Under the pieces are notes generated by a model. It searched no databases. It was not told where the DNA came from and worked only from the letters and a program-made list of their open reading frames with translations. DNA of 64,000 bases from Dehalococcoidia bacterium (lineage in GTDB: Bacteria; Chloroflexota; Dehalococcoidia; Plut-88900), in assembly GCA_965207225.1 (NCBI GenBank), contig CBDBLV010000001.1, forward strand, positions 32,001-96,000. Direction: 5' to 3'. This document shows positions 6,123 through 63,892 of this stretch, one piece after another. Both the position numbers and the translations under genes were made by a program. Within the stretch, counting starts at the first letter, position 1, and the number at the start of each line of letters is the position of its first letter.

Positions 6123-6189
6123 CCCCCAACTCGTCATTCCGGCCCCCGGGCCGGCTGAAAGTGCGCCTCTGGCGTGAATCCACCCCCTT

Positions 6190-6333: not shown

Positions 6334-6377
6334 CCTATGGGGTCGAGGGGCATCCCCCCAAAGCCGCACATTTGCTC

Positions 6378-6406
6378 TTGACACACCTGTCCGACCGTAC
6401 TATCAT
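6378..6406 (+). promoter_or_regulatory. Sigma70-type promoter of non-coding unit 1
   Basis: TTGACA-N17-TATCAT. Confidence 0.7.
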
Positions 6407-6411
6407 GTTCT

Positions 6412-6975
6412 GCGTTCGGTCGAATACAAACTCACGTCATCAAAGGAGGAACCAAAAACCTAGGGAAGCCCACCCGACCCCACGGGTCCCGTGCCCCTTC
6501 CCCATCCATCCAGGCGATGGAAGGTCCATCTACTCTACGCGGTACACCCCTTTCCAGGGGCCTCTACCGAATCGGTGCTCCCTATCTTGGGACGCCTATG
6601 TCGCTGGCAATGGCTTGCCGGCGAAATTCTAACGGCCCGGCGTTACCGGGATTAGGGCCTCAGAGCCCCTACGCGGCTCCACTGCCGTCACCGTCCGCGG
6701 ACTCCGTTCCGCCCATGACGGTATCGAGCCGAATGCTGTCCCGCTCAGCGGTCGAGCGCTGATACGGAGAACAGAAGTCCCCGCGCAGAGACACCCTCGA
6801 CAACGGCAAGTCTCCCAAGGCATGCGTGAAGGGAAAGGCAGGACAACCGCCGATGCCACCAGCGTCGGCGTAGGTGCCATCGAGGTCCTGCATCCGAGTC
6901 CCGGACCTTCCATCGCCGACCCAAAACCCAACAGGCAGAACAAAATGCAAACCCAAACCCCACAACACAACATCC
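6412..6975 (+). ncRNA. Putative structured ncRNA unit 1 (undescribed family)
   Basis: AAAGGAGG at 6442, CACGGGTCCCGTG hairpin at 6481, closing IR GGCGATGGAAGGTCC (6513) / GGACCTTCCATCGCC (6903-6917), A/C-rich tail. No credible ORF. Transcription is inferred. Confidence 0.5.
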
Positions 6976-6983
6976 CCTCCCTT

Positions 6984-7130
6984 CCCCCCAGTACTGAACT
7001 AGAGGCAGAGGTCGGCGCTGTTCTTCTCTCCCCCTCTCCCTTCCCCCCAGTACCAAACTAGAGGCAAGCGCCTGCGCCATGGCGCAGGCGCTTGCCTCTG
7101 TTTTTTCTTCCCCCTCTCCCTCAGGGCCAT
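6984..7130 (+). repeat. CAGTAC repeat copy C (collapsed hairpin) and copy D (left part, interrupted by IS481)
   Basis: Two tandem CCCCAGTAC..AACTAGAGG starts. Copy D resumes at 8400-8440. Confidence 0.8.
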
Positions 7131-22796: not shown

Positions 22797-22941
22797 ATCG
22801 CTCTCCCGCAAATCTAAATAAAGTGTGTAACAAAATTACACATACTTTCGGCGCAGGTCAAGGGACCCTGCAGCTTGGCGCCACATGCAAGATGCTGACA
22901 CCCCACCCCTGCCATCCCCGAAAAGTCGGAAATCAATCTCT

Positions 22942-23062
22942 CCCCGAGTACTGAACTAGAGGGAGCCGCATGGGCGCAGCCCATGCGGCTCCCTCTGTTT
23001 TTCTCTCCCCCTCTCCCTTACAGGCCCTAAGGGAGAGGGGGATCAAGGGGGTGAGGGTTCCC
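22942..23062 (+). repeat. CAGTAC variable-hairpin repeat, copy E
   Basis: Hairpin GAGGGAGCCGCATGGGC-GCA-GCCCATGCGGCTCCCTC in the conserved scaffold. Confidence 0.85.
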
Positions 23063-23230
23063 CCGGGGAAGCGGGGATCTCCCCGCCCCAATGTGCCATC
23101 TCCCCCTTGCCCCCACCCTACCCCTCCCGCTATTGTAACCACCATCAAATCCCACCCCTCCCTTCACCCCCGAACCAACTAAAAGGCCTTTCCTCAAACA
23201 ATCAAAATCCCCGCCCGTAAGGAGACACCG

Positions 23231-24427: not shown

Positions 24428-24471
24428 CATCTGAAATAGACTGTATCCACCAAGAGACAGGAGATGGTGAC

Positions 24472-25305
24472 ATGTTCGTAAGAGCCGTAGACCAGCTCGC
24501 AGGTACCGACAAGGAAGTCAATTGGCAGGACGGAGACCTCTGGCTCCGAGCCGCCCGACTCGTTACCAAGGCCGACCTCGTAGGCTTCTCCCTCGCCGAC
24601 GTACGGCTCTCCGCAGGATGGGAGATCGACTGTCACTACAAGCACCACATAGAAGCCAGCTTCGTCATCTCCGGCAGCGCAACGGTTACGGAGTACGCCA
24701 CCGGCAACAGCTGGGACGTTGGCCCCGGCGACCTGTACGTCGTGGGGCCGAAGGACAAGCACCACGTCTCGACCAGGACCGAGTTGCACGGCGTCACCGT
24801 CTTCAACCCTGCCCTGGTTGGCAACGAAAAGCCCGACGAGGACGGCGCATACCCGCCTTCCGGCGAAGTACCCCCGGCCTGGGCTGGTGAGTCGGGCCGG
24901 ACGATGTTCCTGAAGCGGGTCGCCGACACCCGCGTGGTCGGCGTCAGCTACGGCGCCGCCAGGGCCTACCGATACCTCACCCAGGCCGACGAGTGCGGCT
25001 TCACCATCTCCACCCCCCGCTCCCCCGCCGGCGACGGCATCGTCCTCCACTACAAGAACCACGTGGAAGCCAACTACGTGATCGAGGGAGAGGGCACCGC
25101 CGAAGACCTGACTACCGGCGAGAAATGGGACCTCTACCCGGGCTCCATGTACTTCGTCGGCCCGAAGGACAGGCACCAGGTCAACACCCACACCGGCTTC
25201 TACCTTCTCAGCGTCTTCAACCCGCCCCTCGTCGGCGACGAGACCCACGACTCCGAGGGCGGCTACCCCTACACCGGCCCCCTCCCCGAAGCCTGGAGAC
25301 CCTAA
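24472..25305 (+). CDS. Tandem double ectoine-synthase (EctC-like cupin) protein 1
   Basis: ATG after GGAG; 277 aa; two units each with YKxHxE, Y..GPKDxH and VFNPxLxGxE..DxxGxYP. Confidence 0.85.
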   Translation: MFVRAVDQLAGTDKEVNWQDGDLWLRAARLVTKADLVGFSLADVRLSAGWEIDCHYKHHIEASFVISGSATVTEYATGNSWDVGPGDLYVVGPKDKHHVSTRTELHGVTVFNPALVGNEKPDEDGAYPPSGEVPPAWAGESGRTMFLKRVADTRVVGVSYGAARAYRYLTQADECGFTISTPRSPAGDGIVLHYKNHVEANYVIEGEGTAEDLTTGEKWDLYPGSMYFVGPKDRHQVNTHTGFYLLSVFNPPLVGDETHDSEGGYPYTGPLPEAWRP

Positions 25306-25466
25306 GTGTTCCCACTGTCATTCCGATGCCCCGCGAGGAATCTGGGGTGGTGTCCAATCCCCTCTCCCTCGACGGGAGAGGGCCAGAGCCTGTCCCGAGT
25401 CCCCGAGGGAGTGAGGGTGATCCCGAGGCGCGGTTACGAAAACCATATAACCGGAGGTGACACGAT

Positions 25467-26300
25467 ATGTTCGTAAGGACCATTGACCAGCTCGCAGGTT
25501 CCGACAAAGAAGTGAACTGGAGGGACGGAGACCTGTGGCTCAAGGCCGTACGTCTGGTCACAAAGACCGACGGCGCAGGCTTCTCCCTCGCCGACGTCCG
25601 GCTCTCCGCAGGCTGGGAGATCGACTGCCACTACAAGCACCACATTGAAGTCAGCATCGTCCTCTCCGGCAGCGCAACGGTTACGGAGTACGCCACCGGC
25701 AAAAGCTGGGAGGTCGGGCCGGGCGACGTGTACGTGGTCGGCCCGAAGGACAAGCACCACGTATCGACGAAAACCGAGCTTCACGGTGTCACAGTCTTCA
25801 ACCCCGCCCTCGTCGGCACCGAGACCCCTGACGAGGACGGCGCATACCCGCCTTCCGGCGAGGTCCCCCCGGCCTGGGCAGGCGAGTCTGGACGGACCAT
25901 GATGGTAAAGAGGCCCGAGGACGCCCAGTCAGTCGGCGTCCGGGGCACGGGCGCCACCGCCTCCCGGTATCTCACCCAGGCCGACCAGTGCGGCGTCACC
26001 GTATCCATGCCCCGCTCTTCCGAGGGCCACGGCAAGGAGCTCTGGTACCAGAACCACGTCGAGGCTAACTACGTTGTCGAAGGCCAGGGATCCGTCGAGG
26101 ACCTGAACACCGGCGAAAAGTGGGCCTTGGCCCCCGGTTCCATGTACTTCGTCGGGCCGAAGGACAGGCACCTCATGAGCTTCGACACCGCATTCTCCCT
26201 CATCAGCGTCTTCAACCCGCCCCTCGTCGGCAACGAGACCCACGATGACCTCGGCGGCTATCCCCCCACCGGCCCCCTCCCCGAAGCCTGGAGACCGTAG
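25467..26300 (+). CDS. Double EctC-like protein 2
   Basis: 277 aa; WYQNHVEANY, VFNPPLVGNETHD. Confidence 0.85.
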   Translation: MFVRTIDQLAGSDKEVNWRDGDLWLKAVRLVTKTDGAGFSLADVRLSAGWEIDCHYKHHIEVSIVLSGSATVTEYATGKSWEVGPGDVYVVGPKDKHHVSTKTELHGVTVFNPALVGTETPDEDGAYPPSGEVPPAWAGESGRTMMVKRPEDAQSVGVRGTGATASRYLTQADQCGVTVSMPRSSEGHGKELWYQNHVEANYVVEGQGSVEDLNTGEKWALAPGSMYFVGPKDRHLMSFDTAFSLISVFNPPLVGNETHDDLGGYPPTGPLPEAWRP

Positions 26301-26371
26301 CAAGAAAATAGAGAGTCGGGGTCGAATAGGTCCGCACGCCAGTAATAGACAAATAACCTGGAGGTAAGAGG

Positions 26372-27205
26372 ATGTTCGTAAGAAGGCTGGAAGAGCTCAA
26401 CGGTACCCCAAATGAAATGATCAGGATGGCCGGCGAAGGACAACTCCATTCCCGACGCATCCTGACCAAAGCCGACGGTTGCGGCTTCTCCCTTTCCGAT
26501 GTGCTCGCTGCCACCGGCATGTCCATCGACCTCTGGTACAAGCACCAGGTCGAGGCAAACCTGATTGTCACGGGGGAACTGGAGGTCACCGACCTGTCCA
26601 ACAACGCGAAGTGGCTGCTTGGCGCCGGGGACGCATACATGGTCGGGCCTAAGGACAGGCACCGCATCACGGCAAAGAGCGACGTCCATCTCGTCAGCGT
26701 CTTCTGTCCGCCGGTGCTCGGCAACGAGAGGCACGACGAAGACGGCTCCTTCCCCCCGACCGGCGACATCCCGCCTGCCTGGCAAGGAGAATCGGGGCGG
26801 ACCATGTTCATCAAACGGCTGGCCGACACCCGTGTCGTGCGCATCGGCCATGACAGGGCAAACGCGTACAGGTACCTGACCCAGGAAGACGGATGTGGAT
26901 TCACCGTATCCACGCCCCGGGGCGAGGGAGGCAAGAGCATAGTTCTCTGGTACCAGAACCACGTGGAGGCCAACTATATCCTGGAGGGTGAAGGCACGGT
27001 GGAGGACAAGTCGACCGGGGAGACGTGGGACCTGGCCCCCGGCACGGTGTATGTAGTAGGCCCCAAGGACCGGCACCAGCTTTACTCCGAGAAGGGTTTC
27101 TACTTGCTCAGCATCTTCAACCCGCCCCTCGTCGGCGATGAAACCCACGACGAGCTCGGCGGCTATCCCCCAAACGGCCCCATCCCCGAGGCCTGGAGAC
27201 CGTAA
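26372..27205 (+). CDS. Double EctC-like protein 3
   Basis: 277 aa; SRRILTKADGCGFS, WYKHQVEAN, WYQNHVEANY. Confidence 0.85.
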   Translation: MFVRRLEELNGTPNEMIRMAGEGQLHSRRILTKADGCGFSLSDVLAATGMSIDLWYKHQVEANLIVTGELEVTDLSNNAKWLLGAGDAYMVGPKDRHRITAKSDVHLVSVFCPPVLGNERHDEDGSFPPTGDIPPAWQGESGRTMFIKRLADTRVVRIGHDRANAYRYLTQEDGCGFTVSTPRGEGGKSIVLWYQNHVEANYILEGEGTVEDKSTGETWDLAPGTVYVVGPKDRHQLYSEKGFYLLSIFNPPLVGDETHDELGGYPPNGPIPEAWRP

Positions 27206-27229
27206 ACTACAGATTCCGGAGGCAACCCC

Positions 27230-28063
27230 ATGTTCGTAAGAAGAGTCGAAGACCTGGCAGGCACCGACAAACAGATGGTCCGAACTGAAGGGGCCACGAG
27301 GTTACAGTCCACCCGACTCCTCACCCAGTCCGACGGCTGCGGCTTCTCCGTCTCTGACGTCCAGGTCTCCGCAGGTTCCACCGCCGACCTCTGGTACAAG
27401 AACCACGTCGAAGGCAACCTCATTATCTCGGGAGAAATGGAACTGACCGACCTTACCAGCGGCCAGAGCTGGGAACTGGGCGCCGGAGACCTCTACGTCG
27501 TCGGTCCCTGGGACCGGCACCGCATCACCACCACTACCGACCTGCATGCGGTCAGCGTTTTCAACCCCGCCACCCTCGGCGGCGAGCGCCACGACGCGGA
27601 CGGCTCCTACCCTCCCACCGGCGACATTCCACCTGCCTGGCAGGGTGAATCGGGCCGCACAATGATCGTAAAGCGACTCTCGGACACCAGGGTCGTCCCC
27701 ATAGGGCATGGCCGCACCAACGCCTACCGCTACCTACTCCATGATGACGAATGTGGCTTCACCATCTCCACCCCCCGGGCCCCGGGAGGCAAAAGCATCG
27801 TTCTCTGGTACCAGAACCACGTCGAGGCCAACTACATCCTGGATGGCGAGGGTGCCGTCGAAGACGTAACCACCGGCGAAAGATGGGACCTCGCTCCCGG
27901 CACCCTATACGTCGTAGGCCCCAAGGACCGCCACTTCATCGAGTCCGAAAACGGCCTGTACGTCATGAGCATCTTCAACCCCCCAATCTACGGCCACGAG
28001 ACCCACGACGAACAGGGCACCTACACACCGTCGGGCCCCATCCCCGAAGCGTGGGAACCCTAA
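27230..28063 (+). CDS. Double EctC-like protein 4
   Basis: 277 aa; WYKNHVEGN, WYQNHVEANY, IFNPPIYGHETHD. Confidence 0.85.
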   Translation: MFVRRVEDLAGTDKQMVRTEGATRLQSTRLLTQSDGCGFSVSDVQVSAGSTADLWYKNHVEGNLIISGEMELTDLTSGQSWELGAGDLYVVGPWDRHRITTTTDLHAVSVFNPATLGGERHDADGSYPPTGDIPPAWQGESGRTMIVKRLSDTRVVPIGHGRTNAYRYLLHDDECGFTISTPRAPGGKSIVLWYQNHVEANYILDGEGAVEDVTTGERWDLAPGTLYVVGPKDRHFIESENGLYVMSIFNPPIYGHETHDEQGTYTPSGPIPEAWEP

Positions 28064-28308
28064 CCGCAATCCGCTCCCGCCGCCCACTGTCATCCCGATG
28101 CCCCGCGAGGGATCTGGGGTGAGGGTGCTCCCCTTCTCTTTTCTCCCCCTCCCCCCTGATAATTCAATAAAACAGGGCGGGTGGGCGGGACTGCAATTAC
28201 TCCTTAGGGGTTGGGAGGGGCACCCCCTCCCCACATTGCAACCCCACCCCCCATTTGCTAAGCTTTCACCCACTATTTCCCCAAGCCCACCACCCTTGGA
28301 GGGACGCC

Positions 28309-28947: not shown

Positions 28948-29031
28948 TCTCCTCCTGCTGTCTCCCCTGTCATCCCGATGCCCCGCGAGGGATCTGGGGC
29001 GGGATCCCATCCCCTCTCCCTCCTTCCTCCC

Positions 29032-34608: not shown

Positions 34609-34697
34609 AGTGATATGGCTCCCAACCCCTTAAAATATTCAATCATCTCCCCCGATTGCTGAGCTCCTGTAGTCCTACTCGTATCACAAACCCCCCT

Positions 34698-34819
34698 CCC
34701 CCCAGTACCAAACTAGAGGGAGACACCTGCGCCAGGGCGCAGGTGTCTCCCTCTGTTTTTTCCTCCCCCTCTCCCTTAATGGCCCTAAGGGAGAGGGGGA
34801 TCAAGGGGGTGAGGGTTCC
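34698..34819 (+). repeat. CAGTAC variable-hairpin repeat, copy F
   Basis: Hairpin GAGGGAGACACCTGCGCC-AG-GGCGCAGGTGTCTCCCTC; precedes non-coding unit 2. Confidence 0.85.
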
Positions 34820-34913
34820 TCAGTGGGGCCGGGGGCATCCCCTCCCGTAGGGGCGACCGGCTGGTCGCCCTGGGGCGGGGCACATCCCCTCCCCCCAAAT
34901 GTGACTTTGCCCC

Positions 34914-34942
34914 TTGACAGGCAAACATTTGAGCCTTATATT
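34914..34942 (+). promoter_or_regulatory. Sigma70-type promoter of non-coding unit 2
   Basis: TTGACA-N17-TATATT, followed by AAGGAGGAACCAAAAACCCAGGGAAGCCC. Confidence 0.65.
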
Positions 34943-35166
34943 TGTTCTAAGTCTAGACCCGACACCAACCTTAAGGAGGAACCAAAAACCCAGGGAAGCC
35001 CCCGAGACCCGACCCGAGGACTCAACGCCCTAGCCCATCCCAACGGCCCCGCGCAGGCCCGAGGCTCAAGCTGTCGTTACCCAAGATCTTTGAGCCAGGT
35101 TACCCACGAACATTGAGCCACCCTGAACGCCGATGATACGGATTATGACAGGATGCTATCGGCGGT

Positions 35167-35961
35167 TCAATCACCTCCCTTCTTGCCGAGGATTTTGGCC
35201 ACTTTGCCCAGTAGGGCGCGGTGAGGAGAGAGCCTCTCCCGGTAGCTGGTGCCCTCGATGACGATCTGGTAGCTGGTGTTGGCCAGACGGTCCAGGGCGC
35301 TGTTGCCCAGGATGGGATCGTTGAAGAGGCCGAGCCACTCCTCGATGGCGCGGTTGGAGGTGATGACGAAGCTGGAGGCCCGATGCTTGCCGACGATGAG
35401 CTGGTAGAGGTCCGATGACTGTTGTGCGTTGAGACGGTGCAGGCCCAGGTCGTCGAGGATGAGCAGGTCGGGGGAGAGGAAGGAGCGGAAGGCTTTGTCC
35501 ACCGAGTTGTCCACCCTGGCTTGGGACATGGCTTTGAAGAAGTCGTATGCGTGGATGAAGCGGACGGAGTATCCGGCTCTGACGGCGGCGTAGCCGAGGG
35601 CCTGGGCCAGGAAGCTCTTGCCGACGCCCGCCGGTCCCATGAGCAGGACGTGCTCGTGCCTGGGGATGAAGTCCAGGGAGAAGGCGGCGTCAAGGAGGCG
35701 GCGGTCCAGGGTGATTTCGGACGTCCAGTCGAAGTCCTCCAGGCGGCAGGTCTCCTCGAAGCCGGCCCGGTTCAGGCGGGTCTCGATGCGCCGGTTCTCC
35801 CTGCGGCTGACCTCGTCGGCTAGGATGATCTCCAGGAAGGCGGCATAGTCCAACTGGTCCCTTCGGGCCAGGGCGATGCGCTCGGGCAGGGTGTCCAGCA
35901 TGCCGCTGAGCTTGAGGGTCTTGAGCAGCGGGGCCAGATCGACGTTGCGGTTGCGGGTCAT
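35167..35961 (-). CDS. istB: IS21 helper ATPase IstB
   Basis: LEDFDW, GPAGVGKS, LLILDDLG, ITSN, LDRL, GTSYR. Confidence 0.95.
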   Translation of the reverse strand: MTRNRNVDLAPLLKTLKLSGMLDTLPERIALARRDQLDYAAFLEIILADEVSRRENRRIETRLNRAGFEETCRLEDFDWTSEITLDRRLLDAAFSLDFIPRHEHVLLMGPAGVGKSFLAQALGYAAVRAGYSVRFIHAYDFFKAMSQARVDNSVDKAFRSFLSPDLLILDDLGLHRLNAQQSSDLYQLIVGKHRASSFVITSNRAIEEWLGLFNDPILGNSALDRLANTSYQIVIEGTSYRERLSPHRALLGKVAKILGKKGGD

Positions 35962-37538
35962 AGCGTAACTCCTTCGGTTGGGTGATGGCCGTTGACCAGG
36001 GCGAAGACGGAGCCGGGCCTGGCGAAGCGCCCCGGCGGTATGAGGTCGGCAAGGGGCGGCGCATCCTGCTGCTCCAGGGCTTCAACCAGGATGCGCTCGA
36101 CGCGGTGCACGTCGATGAGGTCCACGTCCAAGGCCTTGCGGCAGGCGTCGTTCAGCCGGTCGGGGGTGTAGCGCTGGGCGAGGCGGAGCAGCTTGTGTCC
36201 CTGCCGCACCTTGGCCCAAGGCGTGGGGCCTTCGAAGAGCCGGTCGGCGAAGGCGGCCACCGCCTCTCCCAGCTCCGCCGCGCTCTGCTTGATCTTGTCG
36301 GGCCCTCGCAGGGTGTAGGCGATGAACTCCTTTGGGTAGTCGTCGGTGTCGGTGGAGCGTTTGCCCCTGGGCTGACGGGGATGGACCTTGATCAGCTTGC
36401 CCCGGTGGTAGATGCGCACCAGCTTGCTGTCCAGCGCGATCTCCACCTGCTGCCCCGGAGGGCACAGGGCCGACGGCACCGAGTAGAGGGCGTGCTGGCA
36501 GGTCACGTGGTGGTCGCGCTGCACCTTGGCGTTGCGCCAGCGGGTAACCTCGTAGGGATCGCCGTCCCAGGGCAGCAACGTCTGGCGCTCCTCTGTGTCG
36601 AAGACCTCCACGGGCTTGCGCCTGGTGGTGCCGTGCACCCGCTGTCCGGCCACCTCACGGCACCAGTGGAGCGCTTCCTTCCGCATGTGAGGCAGGTCCC
36701 TGAAGGAGGCTCCCTTGAAGAAGCGCTCTCTCACGTACTGGACTCCCCGCTCCACCTTGGGCTTATCCCTGGGGTGGCGCACCCGGGCCGGGTCGGTGAT
36801 GAAGCCCCGGCGCTGCGAGTACTCCAGGAAGCCCCTGGTCAGCCTGGGGTGCAGGGCGTCGGCCCCGGCCACCGCCGCCGGGAAGTTGTCGATGACCAGG
36901 TACTTGGGTATGCCGTCGAAGAAAGCCCAGGCCGCCTCCAGTCCGGCGACCACGTCCTCCAGCTTCTGCCCGTGGGTGGGCCAGACGAAGCTGTGCCGCG
37001 AGTAGGCCAGCACCACGATCAGCGCCCACACCGTCCGGCGGCGTCCCGTCTCCGGGTCCTCCAGCGGCCCCAGCCGACCGAAGTCCAGCTCCGCCACCTC
37101 GCCCGGAGGACTCTCCTCCATCCGCACCGTCCGAAGACTGCGGCCTCGCCAGTTGCGGCGGGCCACGAAGCGCTGTAACGACGAATAGGGCACATCGCAG
37201 CCCCGCTCCAAGAGCAACTCCCGGATGCGGGTCAGTTGCAGCCGGTCCCCGATGAGCCACTGCTGAATCTGGTCGGCCCAGGGGGACAGCCTCTCCTCTA
37301 TGGGCATCTTGGTCTGCCGCGGTCCCGCACGGCCGATGGCCGCCAGCTTGCTCAGCTGCTCCTCGCTGGGACCCGGTCCGTCCCGGGACAGCCCCAACCT
37401 CTCCGCCGAGGAGATGTATTTGACCACCGTGTTCCGGGACAGGCCCGTCCCAGTCGCTATGTGGCGCTGGCTCTCTCCAGCCTGCCAGCGCCGGATGACT
37501 TCTTCTATCTCCACTCTGAGTACCTCCTTGTAGGCCAT
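35958..37538 (-). CDS. istA: IS21 transposase IstA
   Basis: N-terminal HTH, AELDFG, LVIDN, PRDKPKVER, HGTT, YSVP. Confidence 0.95.
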   Translation of the reverse strand: MAYKEVLRVEIEEVIRRWQAGESQRHIATGTGLSRNTVVKYISSAERLGLSRDGPGPSEEQLSKLAAIGRAGPRQTKMPIEERLSPWADQIQQWLIGDRLQLTRIRELLLERGCDVPYSSLQRFVARRNWRGRSLRTVRMEESPPGEVAELDFGRLGPLEDPETGRRRTVWALIVVLAYSRHSFVWPTHGQKLEDVVAGLEAAWAFFDGIPKYLVIDNFPAAVAGADALHPRLTRGFLEYSQRRGFITDPARVRHPRDKPKVERGVQYVRERFFKGASFRDLPHMRKEALHWCREVAGQRVHGTTRRKPVEVFDTEERQTLLPWDGDPYEVTRWRNAKVQRDHHVTCQHALYSVPSALCPPGQQVEIALDSKLVRIYHRGKLIKVHPRQPRGKRSTDTDDYPKEFIAYTLRGPDKIKQSAAELGEAVAAFADRLFEGPTPWAKVRQGHKLLRLAQRYTPDRLNDACRKALDVDLIDVHRVERILVEALEQQDAPPLADLIPPGRFARPGSVFALVNGHHPTEGVTL

Positions 37539-37661
37539 CGCGGCACCTCCTTATCAAGTGCTGCAATGGTCTAAGCTGGGGCGCTCAGGGTGGCTCAAAG
37601 ACCCTGGTTATCTGGCTCAATGTTAGTGGGTATTGTGGCTCAATGTTCCTGGGTATTGACA

Positions 37662-38085
37662 AAGCCGAAGGTGTTATCTCCTCAACACGGGTCCCGTGCC
37701 CCTTCCCTGCCCCCCAGGCGATGGAAAGACGTTCTGGCCTAAGCTGTTCCCGTCAGGCCTAACCCCGCAGAAGCGGGCCCAGGCCTTGCCCCAGGCGCGT
37801 TGGTGGCGCGCCAAGTGGGCCGGCGTCGATATGGCGTCCGGCGGCAGTAACCTTCCGTTCCTGCTCACCACAGGAGCAGGTATGGCCGTAACCTGATTGA
37901 ACACGGCTGATAGAATTTCATTCCTACGGCCCCTGGGCCGGTGCGCCTCTCCCCTGGGCGCATGTCTAAAATCTGCCCGAATGGGAACAGGGGCACAGCC
38001 TCCGGCCAGCGTCTTCCATCGCCGACCCAAAACCCGACAAACAGAACGAAAACCGGAAACCCCACAACCGAATAGAGACCCGGCC
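37662..38085 (+). ncRNA. Putative structured ncRNA unit 2, 3' part (5' part about 34948-35071; split by IS21)
   Basis: CACGGGTCCCGTG at 37686; closing IR GGCGATGGAAAGACGTTCTGGCC (37717) / GGCCAGCGTCTTCCATCGCC (38004-38023); A/C-rich tail. Confidence 0.5.
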
Positions 38086-38181
38086 TGCCGGGCAGACCCC
38101 CACCCTTCCCCCTCCCCCCGACCCGGTGATAAAATCACCTTTGGCCCTCGGTACTCCCTTTAGCTAAGGTGTCTGCCTCTC

Positions 38182-41079
<2,898 letters not shown>

Positions 41080-47221: not shown

Positions 47222-48013
47222 CTATTCCTGCGGCAAATAATTGCGCGGCAACTCCGCACCGACCGCCGCCCTCACGTATATAACCTCCCCGGATATGTGG
47301 CTCCCCTCCTCCGACGCCAGGAATACGCACAGGTTGCCTATGTCCTCGGACCTCACCATCCTGCCCAGCGGCATGCCCTTGTCAACCTCTTCGAAGGTGT
47401 CTTTGCCCGTGGTCCGGGATATCCCTCCCCATGCCATGTCCGTCGGTACGAGACCCGGGTTCACCGCGTTCACCCGCACCCCCTGGTACCGCTCCTCCTT
47501 CGCCACCCCTTTGGCCAGTGCATCAATCGCTGCCTTGGCCGCGTTGTAGTCCGAGTCATTTGCCATCAGCATGTCCGTGCTTCGGGACGAAATGAGGATT
47601 AAGTCTCCCCTTACGTTGTTCCTCAGGTGTGGAAGCGCCGCCCGGGAGCAGTTGAACGCCCCTATAAGGTGGTTCCGGATCGTGTAGGCGAACTCGTCGT
47701 GGGTAAGCTCGATAAGCGGCTTCCCGTGTCCCTTGGTTCCCGCATTCGCCACCATGATGTCCAGCTTCCCGAACCTCGACACCGTCTCCTCCACCATCGA
47801 CTCCACCTCCCCGTAGTCCCCCACATCCGCCTTCATGGCGACCGCCGTTCCTCCCGCCGCCTCTATGTCCGCCACCACCTCCGCTGCGGGCCCCGGCGAC
47901 TTGAAGTAGTTCACAACTACCTTCGCCCCCTCACGGGCCATGCACCTGGCTATCCCGGAGCCTATACCCCTGGAACCCCCGCTTACTATCGCTACTCTTC
48001 CTTGCAGTCTCAT
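47222..48013 (-). CDS. SDR oxidoreductase (5th of trp-embedded array)
   Basis: SGGSRGIG, ANAG, YNAAK. Confidence 0.9.
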   Translation of the reverse strand: MRLQGRVAIVSGGSRGIGSGIARCMAREGAKVVVNYFKSPGPAAEVVADIEAAGGTAVAMKADVGDYGEVESMVEETVSRFGKLDIMVANAGTKGHGKPLIELTHDEFAYTIRNHLIGAFNCSRAALPHLRNNVRGDLILISSRSTDMLMANDSDYNAAKAAIDALAKGVAKEERYQGVRVNAVNPGLVPTDMAWGGISRTTGKDTFEEVDKGMPLGRMVRSEDIGNLCVFLASEEGSHISGEVIYVRAAVGAELPRNYLPQE

Positions 48014-48059
48014 ATTTCCCCTGTCTTATCTTTGTGTTTTTCTTACCTCGTGGTAACGC

Positions 48060-48869
48060 TTAAGCCGAGTAATAGGGCTTTGGCCCGTTCACGTAGAAAG
48101 AGGGCGGCTCTCCCCCCACCGCACCCCGCACATATATCACCTCGCCCGAGATGTGACTCCCCTGCTCCGATGCCAGGAATGTACACAGGTTCCCGATGTC
48201 CTCCGGCCTCATCATCCGCCCAAAGGGCATCACTTTGTCCACCTCCTCGACGCTGTCCTTGCCCGTGGTTGCCATCAGCTCTTCCATCAGGATGTCCGTC
48301 GGGACCAGGCCCGGCGCCACCACATTCACCCGTATCCCGTTGTAACGTTCCTCTTTCGCAAGTCCTTGCGCCATGCCGTCCATCCCCGCCTTTGCAGCGT
48401 TATACGGCGAGGAGTTTGGTGGGAAGAAGTCGGTCTGCCGGGACGAAATGAATATGATGTCGCCCCTCTCCTGCTCTCTCATGTGGTGCAGCAGGCAGTG
48501 TGAAGTGTTGAATGACCCTATCAGGTGATTGTTGACAACCCCTTCAAATTCCTCGGGTGTGATATCTGCCATCGGGCCGTATGGCCCCGCTATGCCCGCG
48601 TTGTTCACCAGGATGTCCACCTTGCCGAACTCCGCTATCGATCGCTCCACCATAGACTTCACCTGTGCATAGTTCCCCACGTCCGCCTGGATCGCAATCG
48701 CCCGACCCCCCTTCCCCTGGATCCCTTCCACCACCTCGTTCGCCAGCCTTTCCGACTGCACGTAGTTCACCACCACCGCCGCCCCCTCCTCCGCCATGCA
48801 CCGCGCTATCCCCGCCCCGATTCCTCGTGACCCGCCCGTGACCAGTGCTACCCGACCTTCCAGTCTCAT
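48060..48869 (-). CDS. SDR oxidoreductase (4th)
   Basis: TGGSRGIG, NNAG, YNAAK; ATG overlaps the upstream stop. Confidence 0.9.
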   Translation of the reverse strand: MRLEGRVALVTGGSRGIGAGIARCMAEEGAAVVVNYVQSERLANEVVEGIQGKGGRAIAIQADVGNYAQVKSMVERSIAEFGKVDILVNNAGIAGPYGPMADITPEEFEGVVNNHLIGSFNTSHCLLHHMREQERGDIIFISSRQTDFFPPNSSPYNAAKAGMDGMAQGLAKEERYNGIRVNVVAPGLVPTDILMEELMATTGKDSVEEVDKVMPFGRMMRPEDIGNLCTFLASEQGSHISGEVIYVRGAVGGEPPSFYVNGPKPYYSA

Positions 48870-49687
48870 ATTCCACTCCTCTGCGACGCCGATGAGAAGA
48901 ACTCCTGCGTCGGCTTTCTGTCCTGCGATGCGTCCACGTAGATCACCTGCCCCGAGATATGACCCCCCGCCTCCGACGCCAGGAACGCACACAGGTTACC
49001 CGTGTCCCGGGGTTGGGCTATCCGACCCAACGGCAGGTATGGGTCAACCTCCCTGAAGCTGGAGAAGCCGTACCTCTTCAACAGACCCGTGGCCATGTCC
49101 GTCTCCGTAGTCGTCGGCGCTATAACGTTCACCCGGATCCCGTGGCCCTGCTCCTCCTTCGAAAGCACCCGGCCCATCACTTCTATGCCTGCCTTGGCCA
49201 CGTTGTAGGAGGTCAGCCCCACGGGGAGCATCTTCGCGTTCGTAGATCCTATCAGTTGGATGTCCCCCCGGGCCTGCACCCTCATGTGCGGCAATACCGC
49301 CTGCACACAGGTGAATGCCCCCATTATGTGGTTCTCAATGACCTCCCGAAACTCTTCCAGGTCCGCCTCGTGTACGTGGCTGTCCCGACGTATGATCCCC
49401 GCATTGCAGACCAGGATGTCTACCTTCCCCAACCCCTCCACCCCTGCCCCGACCATCGCCTTTACCGCATCCACGTCCCCCACGTCTGCCCTGTAAGTAA
49501 GAGCCCTACGGCCCAACGCCCGAATTTCCTCGGCCGTGGCTTCTGCGGCCGTCGCATTGCTCACGTAGTTCACCATCACGTCAGCGCCGGCCTCAGCCAT
49601 AGCTAGCGAGATCGCCTTCCCAATCCCCCGGGACCCGCCCGTCACCAGGGCAACCCGCCCTTCCAACGACCTTCCCGAATCAGTCAT
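48866..49687 (-). CDS. SDR oxidoreductase (3rd)
   Basis: TGGSRGIG, CNAG, YNVAK. Confidence 0.9.
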   Translation of the reverse strand: MTDSGRSLEGRVALVTGGSRGIGKAISLAMAEAGADVMVNYVSNATAAEATAEEIRALGRRALTYRADVGDVDAVKAMVGAGVEGLGKVDILVCNAGIIRRDSHVHEADLEEFREVIENHIMGAFTCVQAVLPHMRVQARGDIQLIGSTNAKMLPVGLTSYNVAKAGIEVMGRVLSKEEQGHGIRVNVIAPTTTETDMATGLLKRYGFSSFREVDPYLPLGRIAQPRDTGNLCAFLASEAGGHISGQVIYVDASQDRKPTQEFFSSASQRSGI

Positions 49688-49796
49688 TATTTGATCTTCT
49701 CTCCTGTCATACAGCGGCCCTCCCCAATGTCATTCCGATGCCCTGCGAGGAATCTGGGGTGGGGCTCCCCTCCTGGCAAAGGCCTCCCACCCATGC

Positions 49797-50603
49797 CTAC
49801 CTCTGCGCCCGGGCCTCGGGCGTCACGAACTCCCGCAGCGACGACGGCCCTATGCCGCAGTCTAGGTAGATCACCTGCCCCGACACATGGCTGGCCTTGT
49901 CACTGCAGAGCCATACGCACATGTTCCCCACGTCGTAGGGCTGGATCAGCCTGTCGAAGGGCACTATGCCGTCCAGGTTCCGGGGGTCGTCTATCTGTGC
50001 CCAGTCCAGCACCAGCTTCAACCCCATGTCCGACTCCACGATGGTCGGTGCAATGGCGTTCACCCGGATCCCGTGCCAGCTCAGCTCCTTGGATATCGTC
50101 TTAACGAACGTCCCCATCCACGCCTTCGCGCTGGCATAGGCCCATTCGTCGGGCCACAGCTGCTGAGTCGCCAGCGAGCTTATAAAGTGGATGTCGCCCC
50201 TTTTCTGCTCCTTCATGTGCGGCAGTACCGCCTGCGTGCAGTAGAACGACCCCGCAATGTGAGTCCCGTAAACATCGTGGAACACGGCCATCGCATCTTC
50301 TGCCATTATCGACTTCGAATAATGCTGACCGGCGTTGTTGACCAGGATGTCCACCCGACCGAAGGTCGCAATGGTCTCGTCCACCATCGCCTGCACCTCG
50401 TCGTAGTTCTGCACGTTGGCCTGGTACAGCAGCGCCTTCCTCCCCCGGGCCTCGACGTCCGACGCCGTCTGCTCCGCACCCTCCTTGTTGCGTTGGTAGT
50501 TCACCACAATGTCCGCCCCTTCATCCGCCATGCTCTGCGCAATCCCCTGGCCTATGCCCCGGGACGCCCCCGTTATCAGCGCAACTCTTCCTTCAAGCTC
50601 CAT
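49797..50603 (-). CDS. SDR oxidoreductase (2nd)
   Basis: TGASRGIG, NNAG, YASAK. Confidence 0.9.
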   Translation of the reverse strand: MELEGRVALITGASRGIGQGIAQSMADEGADIVVNYQRNKEGAEQTASDVEARGRKALLYQANVQNYDEVQAMVDETIATFGRVDILVNNAGQHYSKSIMAEDAMAVFHDVYGTHIAGSFYCTQAVLPHMKEQKRGDIHFISSLATQQLWPDEWAYASAKAWMGTFVKTISKELSWHGIRVNAIAPTIVESDMGLKLVLDWAQIDDPRNLDGIVPFDRLIQPYDVGNMCVWLCSDKASHVSGQVIYLDCGIGPSSLREFVTPEARAQR

Positions 50604-50628
50604 GATTAGCCTCCAAATTGCTCCTTGG

Positions 50629-51390
50629 TCACCGCGCCATCCCACCGTCCAGATGAATAACGTGCCCCGAGATATACCCCCCGTCCTCCGACGCCAGGAA
50701 TGCTGACAGCTTCGCTATGTCCTCCGGCTGGCACACCCTCCCGAACGGGTAGTCCGGGTATATATCCTTGATGTCGTCGACGCCCTGGGTCGCCTTCACC
50801 AGCCTCTTCCCCATCTCCGTCTCCACCAGCCCCGGCGCTATTACGTTCACCCGTATCCCGTGCTGGCGCTCGTCCTTCGCCATCGACATCGCCAATGCTT
50901 CCAGGCACGCCTTTGCCGTGGCGTAAGGCCCGTGCCCAGCCTCCGCCCTGAACGGCGACGTCGACGAAATGAAATGCACGTCCCCCCGACTCCGCTCCCG
51001 CATCCCGGGCAACAACGCCCTTGCGAAATGCAGCGCTCCGAAAAGGTGCACGTCCAGCACCCGGCGCATCTCCCTCGGCTCAGTCTCTCCCAGGTGGTTC
51101 CCCCGGGAAGCGACCCCCGCATTGCACACCAGGATGTCTACCCCACCGAACAACTCGATAGCCTCCGACACCATGGCCTCCACCGCAGCGTTGTCCGTCA
51201 CATCCGTCTGTCGGGCCAGCACCCGACGCCCTAACCCTTCGATCTCCGCCGCTGTCTCCCGCGCCGACTCCTCATCCTTGCGATAATTGAACGCCACGTC
51301 CGCACCCTGCGCGGCCAGCTCCAGGGCCACCGCTTTCCCGATGCCCCGGTTGCCGCCTGTGACTATGGCTGCTCTGCCTTTCAGCTTCAT
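50629..51390 (-). CDS. SDR oxidoreductase (1st)
   Basis: TGGNRGIG, CNAG, YATAK. Confidence 0.9.
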   Translation of the reverse strand: MKLKGRAAIVTGGNRGIGKAVALELAAQGADVAFNYRKDEESARETAAEIEGLGRRVLARQTDVTDNAAVEAMVSEAIELFGGVDILVCNAGVASRGNHLGETEPREMRRVLDVHLFGALHFARALLPGMRERSRGDVHFISSTSPFRAEAGHGPYATAKACLEALAMSMAKDERQHGIRVNVIAPGLVETEMGKRLVKATQGVDDIKDIYPDYPFGRVCQPEDIAKLSAFLASEDGGYISGHVIHLDGGMAR

Positions 51391-52913: not shown

Positions 52914-53262
52914 CGAACAAACCCCCCTCGTCCTCAGGGGCGAGGGGGGTTCTCGCGGTGCCACCCTAATTTATCCGGCCGCACCCGCTTCACGGCATGT
53001 AACCGCGAATCGGGCACTGCACTGCGGCTGGCCGGCTAATCTCTAACAGGTACGTCCTCGGTCAGGCTTTCGGCCTGCCTCGGAGATACCCTGGGCCCTG
53101 GTAACGGCGCCCCTTCCGTCCAAGCCTACTCCCCCGACTCCCGTCGGCCTTTCGGTTGGCGACTCCCGGGTCCATTCAGCCTCCGCGCTGAGGTCGGCTC
53201 TCACCTGCCCCGACTCTCTGGCCCCCGCTTCAGGCTTACTACTCCCGTTCGCTGTCTTTATT
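52914..53262 (-). promoter_or_regulatory. T-box riboswitch with Trp (UGG) specifier and intrinsic terminator
   Basis: Minus strand: stem I AGTAG..AGAGA..GGTGAGAG..GCTGAA-TGG-A (codon at 53172-53174), CCGTTA, T-box AATTAGGGTGGCACCGCG, terminator AACCCCCCTCG..CGAGGGGGGTTTGTT. Confidence 0.9.
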
Positions 53263-57728: not shown

Positions 57729-58146
57729 GCCCTTTCCCTTCTGCCCAATGCTCTGACTCCTATAGTATATATCCTCCCACCCCGCCCTCCCCTTCCGTCA
57801 TTCCCGAGTAGTCGGGAATCTAGGGGTGTGATGGTGTGGGGAAGTCCAGTCTTCTCTCTCCCGTAGGGGCGACCCGCCGGTCGCCCTGGGGAGGTGGGTG
57901 GCCCACGCATCTACGGATTCTCGCATGCTTCCACCACCAAACCGCACCCCTCCATGTCACCCCGAGGCCCCGCGAAGAATCTCCAGCACACCTCCCTAAA
58001 CCCACCCCTGCAATCCCACTCACCCCTCCCCCCCTTGGCAAAGACATACCAAAAATGCACTGCATTCTTGGTATGTCAATAAATCAGGGCGGGTGGTCGG
58101 GACTCCATTTAGTCCGGGGGGATAGGGAGAAGCGCTCCCCCTCCCT

Positions 58147-58330
58147 CCCAGTACTGAACTAGAGGCCCACGTGGGTGCGTCGCACCCACGTGGGCCTCTG
58201 TTCTTTTTCATTCCCTCTCCCTCGATGGGAGAAGGTTAGGGTGAGGGTGAGACGAGTGCCGAGAGACCAGTCATGCAAAGCCCTCTTAGTGGCCCTATGG
58301 GAGAGGGAGACCAAAAGGGGTAAGGATTCC
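58147..58330 (+). repeat. CAGTAC variable-hairpin repeat, copy G (with insertion)
   Basis: Hairpin stem identical to copy A with a different loop (GTC). Confidence 0.8.
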
Positions 58331-58592
58331 CGCCCTCGGCGGCGGGGATGCTTCTGGACCCCGTCGCCTCTGCCATCTCCAAGCACGCCCTATTGTGTCA
58401 TCCCGAGGCCCCGCGAGGGATCTCCAGCACCCCTCCCCAAATCCACTTCTATTTCACACCGCTCCCGGCCGTTCCCCCTTGCCAACGAATTACCAGAAAT
58501 TTGCCGAGGCAAATTTCTGGTAATTCAAAAGACCGGGCGGGCGGGTGGGACTCATATTATTTCCGGGGGGTTGGGAAGGGCACTCTTCCCTT

Positions 58593-58713
58593 CCCCCAGT
58601 ACCAAACTAGAGGGAAGCGCCTGCGCCATGGCGCAGGCGCTTCCCTCTGTTTTTTCCTCCCCCTCTCCCTTACAGGCCCTAAGGGAGAGGGGGAGGAAGG
58701 GGGAGAGGGTTCC
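58593..58713 (+). repeat. CAGTAC variable-hairpin repeat, copy H
   Basis: Hairpin GAGGGAAGCGCCTGCGCCATGGCGCAGGCGCTTCCCTC; precedes non-coding unit 3. Confidence 0.85.
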
Positions 58714-58815
58714 CTCGTGGGGCTGGGGGTATCCCTCCCCCCAACAAATCAGACCAATCCGTCAATCCCATGAAGCACAGTTCAGATATTCCTCCCAAAA
58801 GCCGCACATTTGCTC

Positions 58816-58844
58816 TTGACACATCTGTCCGGCAGTACTATCAT
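58816..58844 (+). promoter_or_regulatory. Sigma70-type promoter of non-coding unit 3
   Basis: TTGACA-N17-TATCAT; context nearly identical to 6360-6406. Confidence 0.7.
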
Positions 58845-58849
58845 ATCCT

Positions 58850-59640
58850 GCGACAGAACAAATATCTCACTATCAAAGGAGGAAACCAAAACCCAGGGAA
58901 ACCCCCGAGACCCGACCCAAGGCATCGCCCCCGAGAAATCGGGGGACTCAACGCCCTAACCCATCCCAATACCTATCTCCTCTCTTGTAGGGGCGACCGG
59001 CCAATCGCCCCCCTTGCGAGGCAGGCAGGTTGCGGCACAAGCGACAGCGTTATCCCCGAGACGTCGGGGACGCCACCTCCTCATCCCACGGGTCTCGTGC
59101 CCCCTTCCCTGTCCCCCGGGCGATGGAAAGACGCCCTGGATAGAAGCCAAGCAGACCGGCCATCCCCCGCCGAGAGACCGTCTCGGAGGTCGGTCTGTAG
59201 CGAACTTGCGCTATATCAAGATAGGGGTGGCGGGCTGGCTAGCCCCGCTCCGGACAAGTTACCGGTGGTTGGCCCGTCGGCGAGCTTACGCCACACCGAA
59301 TCAAGCATAACCTGGGGTCGCTGGGGCACTCGGGACCTGCGGGTGCGCCACGTAATAGAAACTCCCGGGGGCTAACGGCCCGATCACTGGCCCTCACTGC
59401 GCCCTGAGGGCGCCTGGGAGCGGGTCAAGGCCCGGCTGTCCGCCCGAACAGCCGGAGCACAAATCGAGCAGAAGGGTGCGGCCGGCTGCAATCCGCCCCC
59501 GGCGGACCTCCATGGCCCCGGACAGCTGGAACACCGCATGGTAGGGACCACCGGCTCACCAGGTGCGTCTTCCATCGCCGCCCCAAAACCCAACAGACAG
59601 ACCCAAAACCCGAAACCCCACAACTGAATAAAAACCCGGC
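58850..59640 (+). ncRNA. Putative structured ncRNA unit 3
   Basis: AAAGGAGG at 58875, CACGGGTCTCGTG at 59087, closing IR GGCGATGGAAAGACGCCCTGG (59119) / CCAGGTGCGTCTTCCATCGCC (to 59579), A/C-rich tail. Confidence 0.5.
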
Positions 59641-59842
59641 GTGTCACCAGCCTTCCGAACGAGTACACCCCTTGAACCCGACACCCAACACCCTGTACAA
59701 TCGCCCCCGCAGCCGACCGCGAGCGGCGGTAAGCATCTACCGGGCAACCCTACAAAAAGCCCAATGGCCGGTATCATCGGGAACCGGACCGGGCGCTGAA
59801 TAGCATCTTGTGAACCCTCGCGGTCGGTTTGCGAGGGTTTTG

Positions 59843-60817
59843 TTGTACGACACGATAACCGACGTACCCGGCATCCGGGTGGGCCACTACACTGACTCCG
59901 AGGCCGTCACCGGCTGCACCGTAGTCCTCGCCCTTGAGGGCGCAGTCGCAGGCGTCGACGTACGGGGTGCGGCCCCCGGCACCCGTGAGACCGACCTCCT
60001 CCGACCCCTCAACCTCGTCCAGGAGGCCCACGCCGTCGTCCTCAGCGGTGGCAGTGCCTACGGTCTCGCTGCCGCCGACGGTGTGATGACCTGGCTCGAA
60101 GAGCAGGGAGTCGGCTTTCCCGTGGGCGTGGGTGTCGTTCCTATCGTCGCCTCCGCCATCCTTTTCGACCTCGCCATCGGCGACCCCACCACCCGCCCCC
60201 GCCCCGAGCACGGCTACCAGGCCAGCGCTGCCGCCGATTCTTCCGCCCCGGCCCAGGGCTCCGTAGGTGCAGGCACGGGCGCAACCGTAGGTAAGGCCCT
60301 CGGCCAGGAACGCGCCGTCAAGGGTGGCCTCGGGTGCGCCAGCCGACGCGTGGGCGAATACACCGTCGGGGCCCTCGTCGCAGTCAATGCCCTCGGCAGT
60401 GTCGTAGACGCCGAAACAGGTGAAGTCATCGCCGGCCCCCGTGAACCGAGCGGTCTCGGCTTCCTGGACAGCGTAGACATCCTGGAAGACGTGAAGACTC
60501 CCGTTGCGGCCTCGGCCCTCCAGAACACCACCCTCGCCGTCGTCGCCACCGACGCCCCTCTCACCAAGGAGCAGGCCAACAAGCTCGCCCAGATGGCCCA
60601 CGACGGACTCGCCCTTGCCATCCGACCCGCCCACACCATGTTTGACGGCGACGTCGTATTCGCACTGTCCACAGGCAAAGCCGTCCCCGTCCCCGACGTC
60701 ACCCCCTTCGGCGCCGCCGCCGCCCGGGCCCTCAGCAGCGCCATTGTCAAAGCCCTAACCCACGCCTCTAGCCTCGGAGGCGTCCCCTCAATCACATGCC
60801 TAAACCAGAACTCGTAA
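59843..60817 (+). CDS. P1/S58 (DmpA-like) aminopeptidase
   Basis: ITDVPGIRVGH, VDVRGAAPGTRETDLL, LSGGSAYGL, NTTLAVVATD, HTMFDGD. Start uncertain. Confidence 0.9.
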   Translation: MYDTITDVPGIRVGHYTDSEAVTGCTVVLALEGAVAGVDVRGAAPGTRETDLLRPLNLVQEAHAVVLSGGSAYGLAAADGVMTWLEEQGVGFPVGVGVVPIVASAILFDLAIGDPTTRPRPEHGYQASAAADSSAPAQGSVGAGTGATVGKALGQERAVKGGLGCASRRVGEYTVGALVAVNALGSVVDAETGEVIAGPREPSGLGFLDSVDILEDVKTPVAASALQNTTLAVVATDAPLTKEQANKLAQMAHDGLALAIRPAHTMFDGDVVFALSTGKAVPVPDVTPFGAAAARALSSAIVKALTHASSLGGVPSITCLNQNS

Positions 60818-63629: not shown

Positions 63630-63696
63630 TTCATCTTTCGGCCTCCGAGCCGGAACCTATCTCTGGGCAGGGCGGGGGTGAAGTCCTGCCCCCTCT

Positions 63697-63816
63697 CCCC
63701 AGTACCAAACTAGAGGCATACGCCTGCGCCGAGGCGCAGGCGTATGCCTCTGTTTTTTCCTCCCCCTCTCCCTTAAAGGCCCTAAGGGAGAGGGGGATCG
63801 AGGGGGTGAGGGTTCC
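63697..63816 (+). repeat. CAGTAC variable-hairpin repeat, copy I
   Basis: Hairpin GAGGCATACGCCTGCGCC-GA-GGCGCAGGCGTATGCCTC. Confidence 0.85.
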
Positions 63817-63892
63817 TCCGGTGGCGTGGGGTGATTTGAGATATCCCGCAACCCGCGATACCCTTCTTCATATCCCTCCGGAGGTAACCACC

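Follow-up and report, generated by a model that had tools for sequence, protein, structure and literature searches.

We analysed the segment at positions 37717-38023 of a 64,000-nucleotide (nt) stretch of DNA from a Dehalococcoidia bacterium (assembly GCA_965207225.1, contig CBDBLV010000001.1, positions 32,001 to 96,000; hereafter the window). With moderate confidence, we read this segment as the core of one copy of a genus-specific, promoter-driven family of non-coding transcription units. The window holds three units, numbered 1 to 3, whose flanks are conserved and whose interiors are unrelated. The segment belongs to unit 2 and is the core of an interrupted copy, because an IS21-family element separates it from the promoter and leader box. 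Cut off from its promoter in this way, unit 2 is probably silent or misregulated.

Using profiles of the 5′ and 3′ flank modules, we found 41 complete units in the 4.03-Mb assembly. Every match of the 3′ module (41/41) pairs with a 5′ module located 164-511 nt upstream. Seven weak partial matches of the 5′ module stayed unpaired, and neither a strong module alone nor an empty pair was seen. Taking 41 units of about 700 nt, the family is estimated to make up ~0.7 % of the 4-Mb genome. The flanks were present in all eight other genomes of the same genus (12-32 BLAST matches each), and BLAST recovered them in none of three other genera of the family and none of 29 genomes from other families of the class. 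In species-representative genomes, a scan for the exact pattern gave at least 80 loci; among the matches listed, 79 were in Dehalococcoidia metagenome-assembled genome records. One match of the 5′ pattern among those listed was located in a contig labelled Candidatus Peregrinibacteria (L116), where chance, mis-binning or transfer are possible. Several data sets with a low share of the sequence are labelled sponge or marine metagenome, from which we derive no habitat. The unit pattern had no matches in viral contigs, and a literature search, with paper supplements outside its scope, found no description of such units.

Folding of the cores

On the plus strand, 37717-38023 folds with a minimum free energy (MFE) of -153.9 kcal/mol. 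One hundred dinucleotide shuffles gave -125.7 +/- 5.8 kcal/mol (z -4.83) and none of them reached the native energy. The minus strand yielded -159.8 kcal/mol and z -5.31. The two ends of the segment are the complementary arms GGCGATGGAAAGACGTTCTGGCC and GGCCAGCGTCTTCCATCGCC. Representatives of all ten core classes (see below), units 1 and 3 being among the folded classes, showed z-scores from -2.7 to -8.9 on the plus strand and from -2.7 to -8.5 on the minus strand (30 shuffles each).

A sequence-only reading of this DNA had suggested that the unit interiors are nested hairpins and that this be compared with dinucleotide shuffles on both strands. Native folding is better than that of the shuffles on either strand, for unit 2 as for the ten class representatives, and the suggestion is borne out. 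From the stems which it listed for unit 2, the MFE/centroid fold contains the closing stem, CTGTTCCC/GGGAACAG, CCCGC-AGAA-GCGGG, GCGCG/CGCGC, GCCGG/CCGGC, CCTGCTC/GAGCAGG and TGCGCC/GGCGCA; GGCCGTA..TACGGCC is missing and a local GCCGU/ACGGC hairpin takes its place. The core also lacks, as had been noticed, the C skew of the flanks (in unit 2 the GC skew ranges from -0.16 to +0.10 in the core and from -0.26 to -0.49 in the 3′ tail, with -0.33 in the 5′ flank). Covariance models of Rfam 15 recovered no family over the units at the gathering score, none at E <= 10 on 37600-38200 (601 nt) and none over the units at E <= 5 in the whole window.

Organisation of the units

From 5′ to 3′, each unit consists of a promoter, a leader with a Shine-Dalgarno (SD)-like box, a CT-rich box, a small hairpin followed by a C tract, the core enclosed by the closing helix, and a G-poor C/A tail. 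Optional leader modules sit between the leader box and the CT-rich box. The conserved unit reaches 130-370 nt upstream and ~60 nt downstream of the helix arms. In 40 of 41 units the leader box AAGGAGGAACCAAAAACC is located 58-65 nt downstream of a sigma-70-like promoter (TTGAC-N16-18-TAnnnT). We also searched for the features of a STAB-SD, i.e. an SD-like box near the 5′ end without a start codon, and AAGGAGGAACC was found 58-65 nt past the promoter start in 40/41 units. In the leaders that were read, no ATG, GTG or TTG comes after the SD-like box (AAGGAGG). Three promoter types were distinguished and they are shuffled relative to the core classes, as classes 1, 2, 3, 6, 7 and 9 each occur with at least two of them.

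The closing helix of 20-27 bp is present in all 41 units; its arms are inverted repeats of 15-27 bp, and the enclosed cores measure 198-553 nt. The outer 32 nt of each end form 16-27 Watson-Crick pairs (25 in unit 2) and 0-3 G-U pairs, at -28 to -49 kcal/mol. A near-perfect duplex of about two turns, the feature expected of an RNase III helix, is found in 41/41 units. The inner extension of the helix differs on both arms between superfamilies (GGTCC/GGACC vs GACGC..CTGG/CCAG..GCGTC). The tail matches the features of a Rho utilization (rut)-type site, i.e. ~60-80 nt that are C-rich, G-poor and unstructured, with a skew of -0.26 to -0.49, and G-poor tails are conserved.

In unit 2, the promoter type and the spacing from promoter to leader are as in other units. 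The IS21-family element sitting in its leader measures 2,590 bp and looks intact. All coordinates are given in Table 1.

Core classes and probable core exchange

The claim that the interiors differ in sequence holds beyond the window: the 41 cores fall into 10 sequence classes and the flanks are conserved. A sample of 116 units from the genus gave 17 core clusters. Unit 2 belongs to class 6, for which seven copies are known, two in this genome (G000) and five in G005; an intact unit of this class lies at G000:C3:161834-162260. Class 6 and class 7 have their outer ~75 nt and ~58 nt in common, and the middle is unique to class 6. Except within its own class, the core of unit 2 is matched nowhere else in the genome, and a mosaic of reusable hairpins was not seen. 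Nor is CTAACGGCCCG a shared motif. It is present at 6629 and 59372, yet we judge this to be a coincidence: CTA(A)CGGCC was found in 6 of the 116 sampled units (3/11, 2/4 and 1/8 within the three classes), mononucleotide shuffles contain it 2.0 times on average and up to 7 times, and it is not a family motif.

Upstream of uvrA, eight of nine genus genomes carry a unit and one site is empty. Each of the eight cores is different, even in a genome whose uvrA is 97 % identical to the one studied here, and the flanks and the junction to the uvrA promoter region are alike. At a second orthologous site, six of nine genomes are filled, with at least four core classes, and three are empty. The variety of cores may therefore stem from units swapping entire cores, presumably by recombination that uses the conserved flanks; alternatively, hot spots may have received insertions repeatedly. 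For bacterial intergenic repeats it is an unusual pattern that entire cores are swapped at orthologous sites while the flanks stay fixed. The interiors had previously been described as cargo, and this fits in so far as whole cores are exchanged between conserved flanks; the closing stem, however, belongs with the core, and both come from one gene segment. A contig joint from 37738 to 38009 in DNA run X1 was rejected as a candidate, since it has 24 letters on one side and probably comes from another unit.

Origin from a terminase gene

A 408-nt segment of the gene for a phage-type terminase large subunit gave rise to the closing helix and to the cores of classes 1-4, which are decayed copies of it. 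The parent gene (G000:C1:233687-235075) encodes a 462-aa protein with a paralogue on C5. It forms a 2.2-kb block with two small upstream open reading frames (ORFs), of which there are two copies, 78 % identical (G000:C1:232946-235075 and C5:241269-243406). No obvious prophage surrounds them, and one copy adjoins rpmH. The parent protein alone had no Pfam and no PDB sequence match and a single chance-level match in NCBIfam, and its identity as a terminase follows from homologues and profiles. Pfam Terminase_6C was recognised in 9 of 24 homologues, all three matches of a PDB profile search with the parent family are terminase nuclease domains, two weak PHROG matches are to terminases, and 315 relatives are found in viral contigs. 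Within the class, 33 of 41 genomes carry the gene.

A tblastn search with the parent protein matched unit 1 with 35 % identity over 147 aa (E 3e-12). At E <= 0.001 seven of the 41 units were matched, all from classes 1, 2 and 4. In the DNA alignment of unit 1 with the gene, both helix arms fall inside the homologous stretch; the arms read GGCGATGGAAGG / CCTTCCATCGCC in the units and GACGATGGAAGG / CC(T)TCCATCGTC in 8/9 gene copies of the genus. Local alignment connects class 3 with classes 4 and 2 (z 13.3 and 6.6), and we therefore place 27 of the 41 units in the terminase lineage. The copies in the units lie in sense orientation relative to the terminase gene. No examined copy keeps the reading frame, with stops or frameshifts in 10/10 class-1 copies and also in unit 2.

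In this genus alone, the terminase segment is itself a helix-closed and strongly folded coding sequence. Within the gene, GACGATGGAAGGTTCCTGGA pairs with TCTGGGAACCTCCATCGTC located 408 nt downstream, giving a 19-bp helix in both the MFE and the centroid fold. The segment has z-scores from -4.1 to -8.4 in 9/9 genus copies, and another part of these genes, used as a control, ranges from -0.05 to -2.3 (in a tool check, the segment scored -4.10 and the control -1.53). In seven orthologues from other genera the inverted repeat is missing and the z-scores are -2.0 to +1.4. Eight viral homologues range from +0.9 to -4.4, with one of them below -2. The family is a traceable case of a protein-coding segment turned into structured non-coding units, for which sister genera are natural controls, and as the parent gene is still folded in this genus alone, the origin of new structured RNAs becomes testable.

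The situation is different for unit 2. Its core gave no hits in the masked genome with blastn or tblastx, none with tblastn using the two terminase paralogues and none with a profile of 29 terminase homologues, and its local alignment scored z -0.3 against shuffles; the search for its source covered this genome. The cores of classes 5-10 (14 of 41) show no similarity to the terminase gene beyond the arms. A match of the cores to coding fragments, which had been named as a finding that would speak against structure, was therefore obtained for the class of unit 1 and not for that of unit 2.

A second repeat family with another conserved leader carries longer and less decayed pieces of the terminase (aa ~194-375, up to 63 % identity), and in some of its copies the sub-segment aa ~261-370 is duplicated in tandem. 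Partial terminase matches number 8-32 per genome in this genus vs none to three in the other genera searched.

Selection on structure and the transcribed strand

The sequence-only reading had suggested selection for structure, for which there is real, if modest, support: variation is lower in stems than in loops, and compensatory changes are scarce. In the class of unit 2, 19 of 202 paired columns (0.09) and 31 of 105 unpaired columns (0.30) vary (Fisher p 1.4e-5). The corresponding fractions, as means over all references, are 0.33 vs 0.50 in class 1 and 0.29 vs 0.42 in the largest class of the second lineage; in these comparisons the structure is taken from a single sequence, and every reference sequence gives the same direction. 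Compensatory changes were counted at 8 of 94 pairs in class 1 (0-4 in slid controls) and at 7 of 118 pairs in the largest class of the second lineage (0-1 in slid controls), where 3 of 500 shuffles reach seven.

It had also been argued that G-U pairs favour the plus strand. This did not hold, as counts of G-U versus A-C do not tell the strands apart: among pairs that are predicted for either strand, changes to G-U occur at 29 sites on the plus strand and at 21 on the minus strand (p 0.32). We infer transcription of the plus strand because of the promoters and the sense orientation to the parent gene.

Possible role of the units and alternative explanations

In the scenario that we propose, the plus strand would be transcribed from the promoter of the unit. 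The SD-like box without a start codon might dock a 30S subunit and shield the 5′ end from RNase J in the manner of a STAB-SD, the long helix could isolate the core as a double-stranded RNase III-type processing or insulating site, and the unstructured G-poor tail may serve as a spacer or as a Rho loading site. Genes for RNase III, RNase J and Rho are all in the genome, above the family cut-offs. The net effect would be mostly in cis, on the co-oriented downstream gene, and about a quarter of the units would end at their own terminator-like module and release free RNAs. A terminator-like repeat module was found within 140 nt downstream of 10/41 units, among them unit 1, where it comes after the tail. 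Host genes keep their own promoter directly after the unit tail; uvrA has a TG-extended -10 box near 38126-38135, in a region also kept in the genome that has no unit there. With housekeeping genes such as uvrA immediately downstream of its members, the family probably influences how these genes are expressed.

Several points weigh against this picture. The stabilising, processing and Rho roles of the unit parts are ones that we infer by analogy. Co-orientation of the next gene, which speaks for the picture (31 of 40 units, binomial p 0.0007), was counted with crude longest-ORF gene calls. The cores of classes 5-10, that of unit 2 among them, lack a link to the terminase gene beyond the arms. 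In the class of unit 2, none of 99 predicted pairs shows a compensatory change; in class 1, 164 of 500 shuffles reach the eight double-change pairs, and the structures tested are favoured over slid controls because they derive from the same sequences. The minus strand has the lower MFE in 36/41 units, owing to its G excess, and z-scores are alike on both strands. Neither an intrinsic terminator nor a promoter is predicted within 37500-38300. In two metatranscriptome runs (X21 and X22), the contigs are confined to 37686-37731 and to parts of uvrA, and 37686-37731 is the conserved 5′ module of relatives' units, for which DNA carry-over is possible. These contigs do not cover the core of unit 2 and show neither start, end nor strand.

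The units might be functionless debris, i.e. gene fragments and repeat modules spread by recombination, with a fold inherited from the parent and from G+C-rich palindromes and without present selection. We consider this unlikely. The broken terminase frame in 10/10 class-1 copies, the scarcity of compensatory changes, the many other intergenic repeat modules of the genome and the copy that tolerates an IS insertion would all fit, but promoters and leaders are kept in 40 of 41 units, and the closing helix is intact in 41/41, with arms that differ on both sides between classes. Moreover, stems are less variable than loops in three classes, cores without detectable similarity to the parent still fold (z -2.7 to -8.3), and units persist at orthologous sites across species. 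That the cores encode small proteins is hardly credible. Open frames of 66-154 aa do overlap unit 2, but the four frames over it belong to no Pfam or PHROG family apart from one chance-level match (Ribosomal_L23eN, E 0.02), the longest frames of near-identical copies lie on different strands and in different phases, unit 2, like class 1, has a broken terminase frame, and there is no start codon downstream of the leader box.

Non-autonomous mobile DNA similar to MITEs (miniature inverted-repeat transposable elements), with the arms as terminal inverted repeats recognised by a transposase and folding as a by-product, is rather improbable. The inverted repeats of 15-27 bp, the presence/absence polymorphism at orthologous sites (empty in 1/9 and 3/9 genomes) and the number of about 40 copies per genome resemble such elements. 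However, the repeats are internal, with 130-370 nt of conserved unit 5′ and ~60 nt 3′ beyond the arms, and the arms exist within a conserved protein-coding gene. The conserved flanks are never empty or alone, the modules of all 41 pairs are 164-511 nt apart, with no long element between such ends, and at filled orthologous sites the junctions stay alike although the cores vary. The 5′ borders of empty and filled sites lie in repeat-rich DNA, and a target duplication could not be read there.

Free RNAs could alternatively act in trans, copying the folded domain of the terminase mRNA and titrating a hypothetical binder (a repressor, a nuclease or the terminase), whereby the phage-derived packaging gene would be controlled or related phages blunted. 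We regard this reading, outcome included, as rather improbable. It would agree with the descent of the helix and classes 1-4 from a terminase segment folded only in this genus, with the sense orientation of the copies, with the strong promoters kept in 40/41 units and with the 10/41 units that resemble stand-alone RNA genes, having a terminator-like module after them. On the other hand, 14 of 41 cores (classes 5-10) have only the closing helix in common with the gene, so a mimic must act via the helix alone, and the bias to co-oriented downstream genes is not needed for a role in trans. Even more doubtful is the full version, in which the terminase of the genus evolved a helix-closed RNA domain that was multiplied into ~40 promoter-driven copies with exchangeable cores as a decoy or sponge system. 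If true, such a system would regulate the packaging gene or offer defence against related phages, through a hitherto undescribed mechanism.

Comparison with known systems

The Correia repeat enclosed elements (CREE) of Neisseria are about 100-150 bp long and have one conserved core. According to PMC2649163, CREE/NEMIS can create promoters, and RNase III can bind them and either cut or protect them; adjacent genes are controlled in this way. The present units resemble them as multicopy intergenic elements with inverted-repeat ends able to form a long RNA stem. Unlike CREE, they measure 450-900 nt, have a complete promoter and leader outside the inverted repeats and are terminase-derived; at least 17 unrelated cores replace the single one, and cutting by RNase III is suggested here by analogy.

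The STAB-SD of cry3A in Bacillus thuringiensis is reported as a perfect SD-like box near the 5′ end of the transcript, with no translation start, which binds the 30S subunit and blocks RNase J1 (PMC4113751; PMC5737220). The AAGGAGG leader box without a start codon, present in 40/41 units plus the split leader of unit 2, is similar and the genome has an RNase J gene. It differs in being part of a repeated unit in a Chloroflexota genome, and its stabilising effect is putative.

In rRNA processing stems and other long-range RNase III helices, a helix of ~20 bp or more with arms hundreds of nt apart encloses structured RNA. The units likewise have a long-range helix downstream of a strong promoter and leader, in a genome with an RNase III gene, but the enclosed RNA is not conserved and processing is putative. 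Reused or mobile prokaryotic promoters are described as near-identical promoter regions before unrelated genes (PMC3575422). The three promoter types likewise lie upstream of many unrelated genes, 31/40 of them co-oriented, but each comes with a long structured non-coding segment, and the host genes keep their own proximal promoter. The RNAs OLE, GOLLD, ROOL, HEARO and raiA are several hundred nt long, have many hairpins, were found by sequence analysis and have mostly obscure functions. Unlike them, the units are multicopy, have non-homologous cores and lack an Rfam match.

Coordinates and other features of the window

Table 1. Units, neighbouring genes and repeats, in window positions unless a contig is named.
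Feature	Position	Strand	Basis or remark
Unit 1	6378..6975	+	promoter type A 6378-6406, leader box 6443, core 6513-6917 (class 1, terminase-derived), tail
Unit 2, sigma-70-like promoter, type C (TTGACA, 17 nt, TATATT)	34915..34943	+	IS now between promoter and core
Unit 2, leader, 5′ part with optional leader modules	34944..35071	+	sequence read
Unit 2, SD-like box AAGGAGGAACCAAAAACCCAGGGAAGCCC, no start codon after it	34973-35001 (G000:C1:66973-67001)	+	exact pattern match
IS21-family element	35072..37661	-	inverted repeats, Pfam, junctions read
IS21 terminal inverted repeats, 49 nt, imperfect	35072-35120 and 37613-37661		
IstB-like ORF, 264 aa	35167-35961	-	Pfam IstB_IS21, E 7e-58
IstA-like ORF, 526 aa	35958-37538	-	Pfam rve and Mu-transpos_C_2
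IS21 4-bp target duplication AAGC	35068-35071 and 37662-37665		junctions read
Unit 2, leader, 3′ part, with CT-rich box ATCTCCTCA at 37676-37684	37662..37685	+	aligned to other units
Unit 2, small hairpin CACGGGTCCCGTG (37686-37698), then C-rich tract	37686..37716	+	three window units, 5′ module profile
Unit 2, closing helix, 5′ arm	37717..37739	+	pairs with 38004-38023
Unit 2, hairpin-rich core, class 6	37740..38003	+	fold, class alignment
Unit 2, closing helix, 3′ arm	38004..38023	+	fold
Unit 2, G-poor C/A-rich tail ending ...AAACCCCACAACCGAATAGAGACCCGG	38024..38090	+	conserved 3′ module
uvrA, co-oriented, downstream of unit 2	38182..41079	+	Pfam UvrA domains
Unit 3	58816..59640	+	promoter type A ~303 nt before helix, core 59119-59579 (class 9), tail
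Second repeat family (outside the window)	G000:C4:456243-457418, C5:1617003-1618472, C2:254359-255789, C3:315299-316774, C5:1307607-1309421		
Terminator-like modules	4702-4847, 6179-6348, 6974-7122, 22931-23076, 34688-34834, 58134-58234, 58582-58728, 63685-63831		
Short repeat copies	532-571, 4655-4694, 25304-25343, 28076-28115, 28956-28995, 49716-49755, 57943-57982, 58384-58423		

The terminator-like repeat module consists of CCCAGTAC(T/C)(G/A)AACTAGAGGC, a long perfect hairpin and CTGTTCTTCTCTCCCCCTCTCCC, often followed by a second hairpin, GGGAGAGGGGGA. These modules come after stop codons (e.g. of the terminase genes) as well as after the 10/41 units, and look like shared terminators. A short repeat, TGTCAT(C/T)CCGA(T/G)GCCCCGCGAGG(G/A)ATCTGGGG, is present in eight copies in the window.

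A conserved leader at ~59700-59850 (+), between unit 3 and the next gene, contains GCAGCCGACCGCGAGCGGCGGTAAGC ... CCCTCGCGGTCGGTTTGCGAGGG and then a T run, and its alternative pairing looks like a terminator/antiterminator switch. It had no Rfam match at E <= 5 and is present in the four genus genomes whose sequence was compared, three of which have no unit there. A match to the T-box leader at 52933-53261 (-) scored below the gathering score (74.6 vs 93 bits, E 2.6e-14). The window also contains tandem arrays of diverged paralogous coding repeats at 617-1889, 24469-28021 and 47273-51384, whose periods are approximately 387, 414-995 and 800-930 nt.

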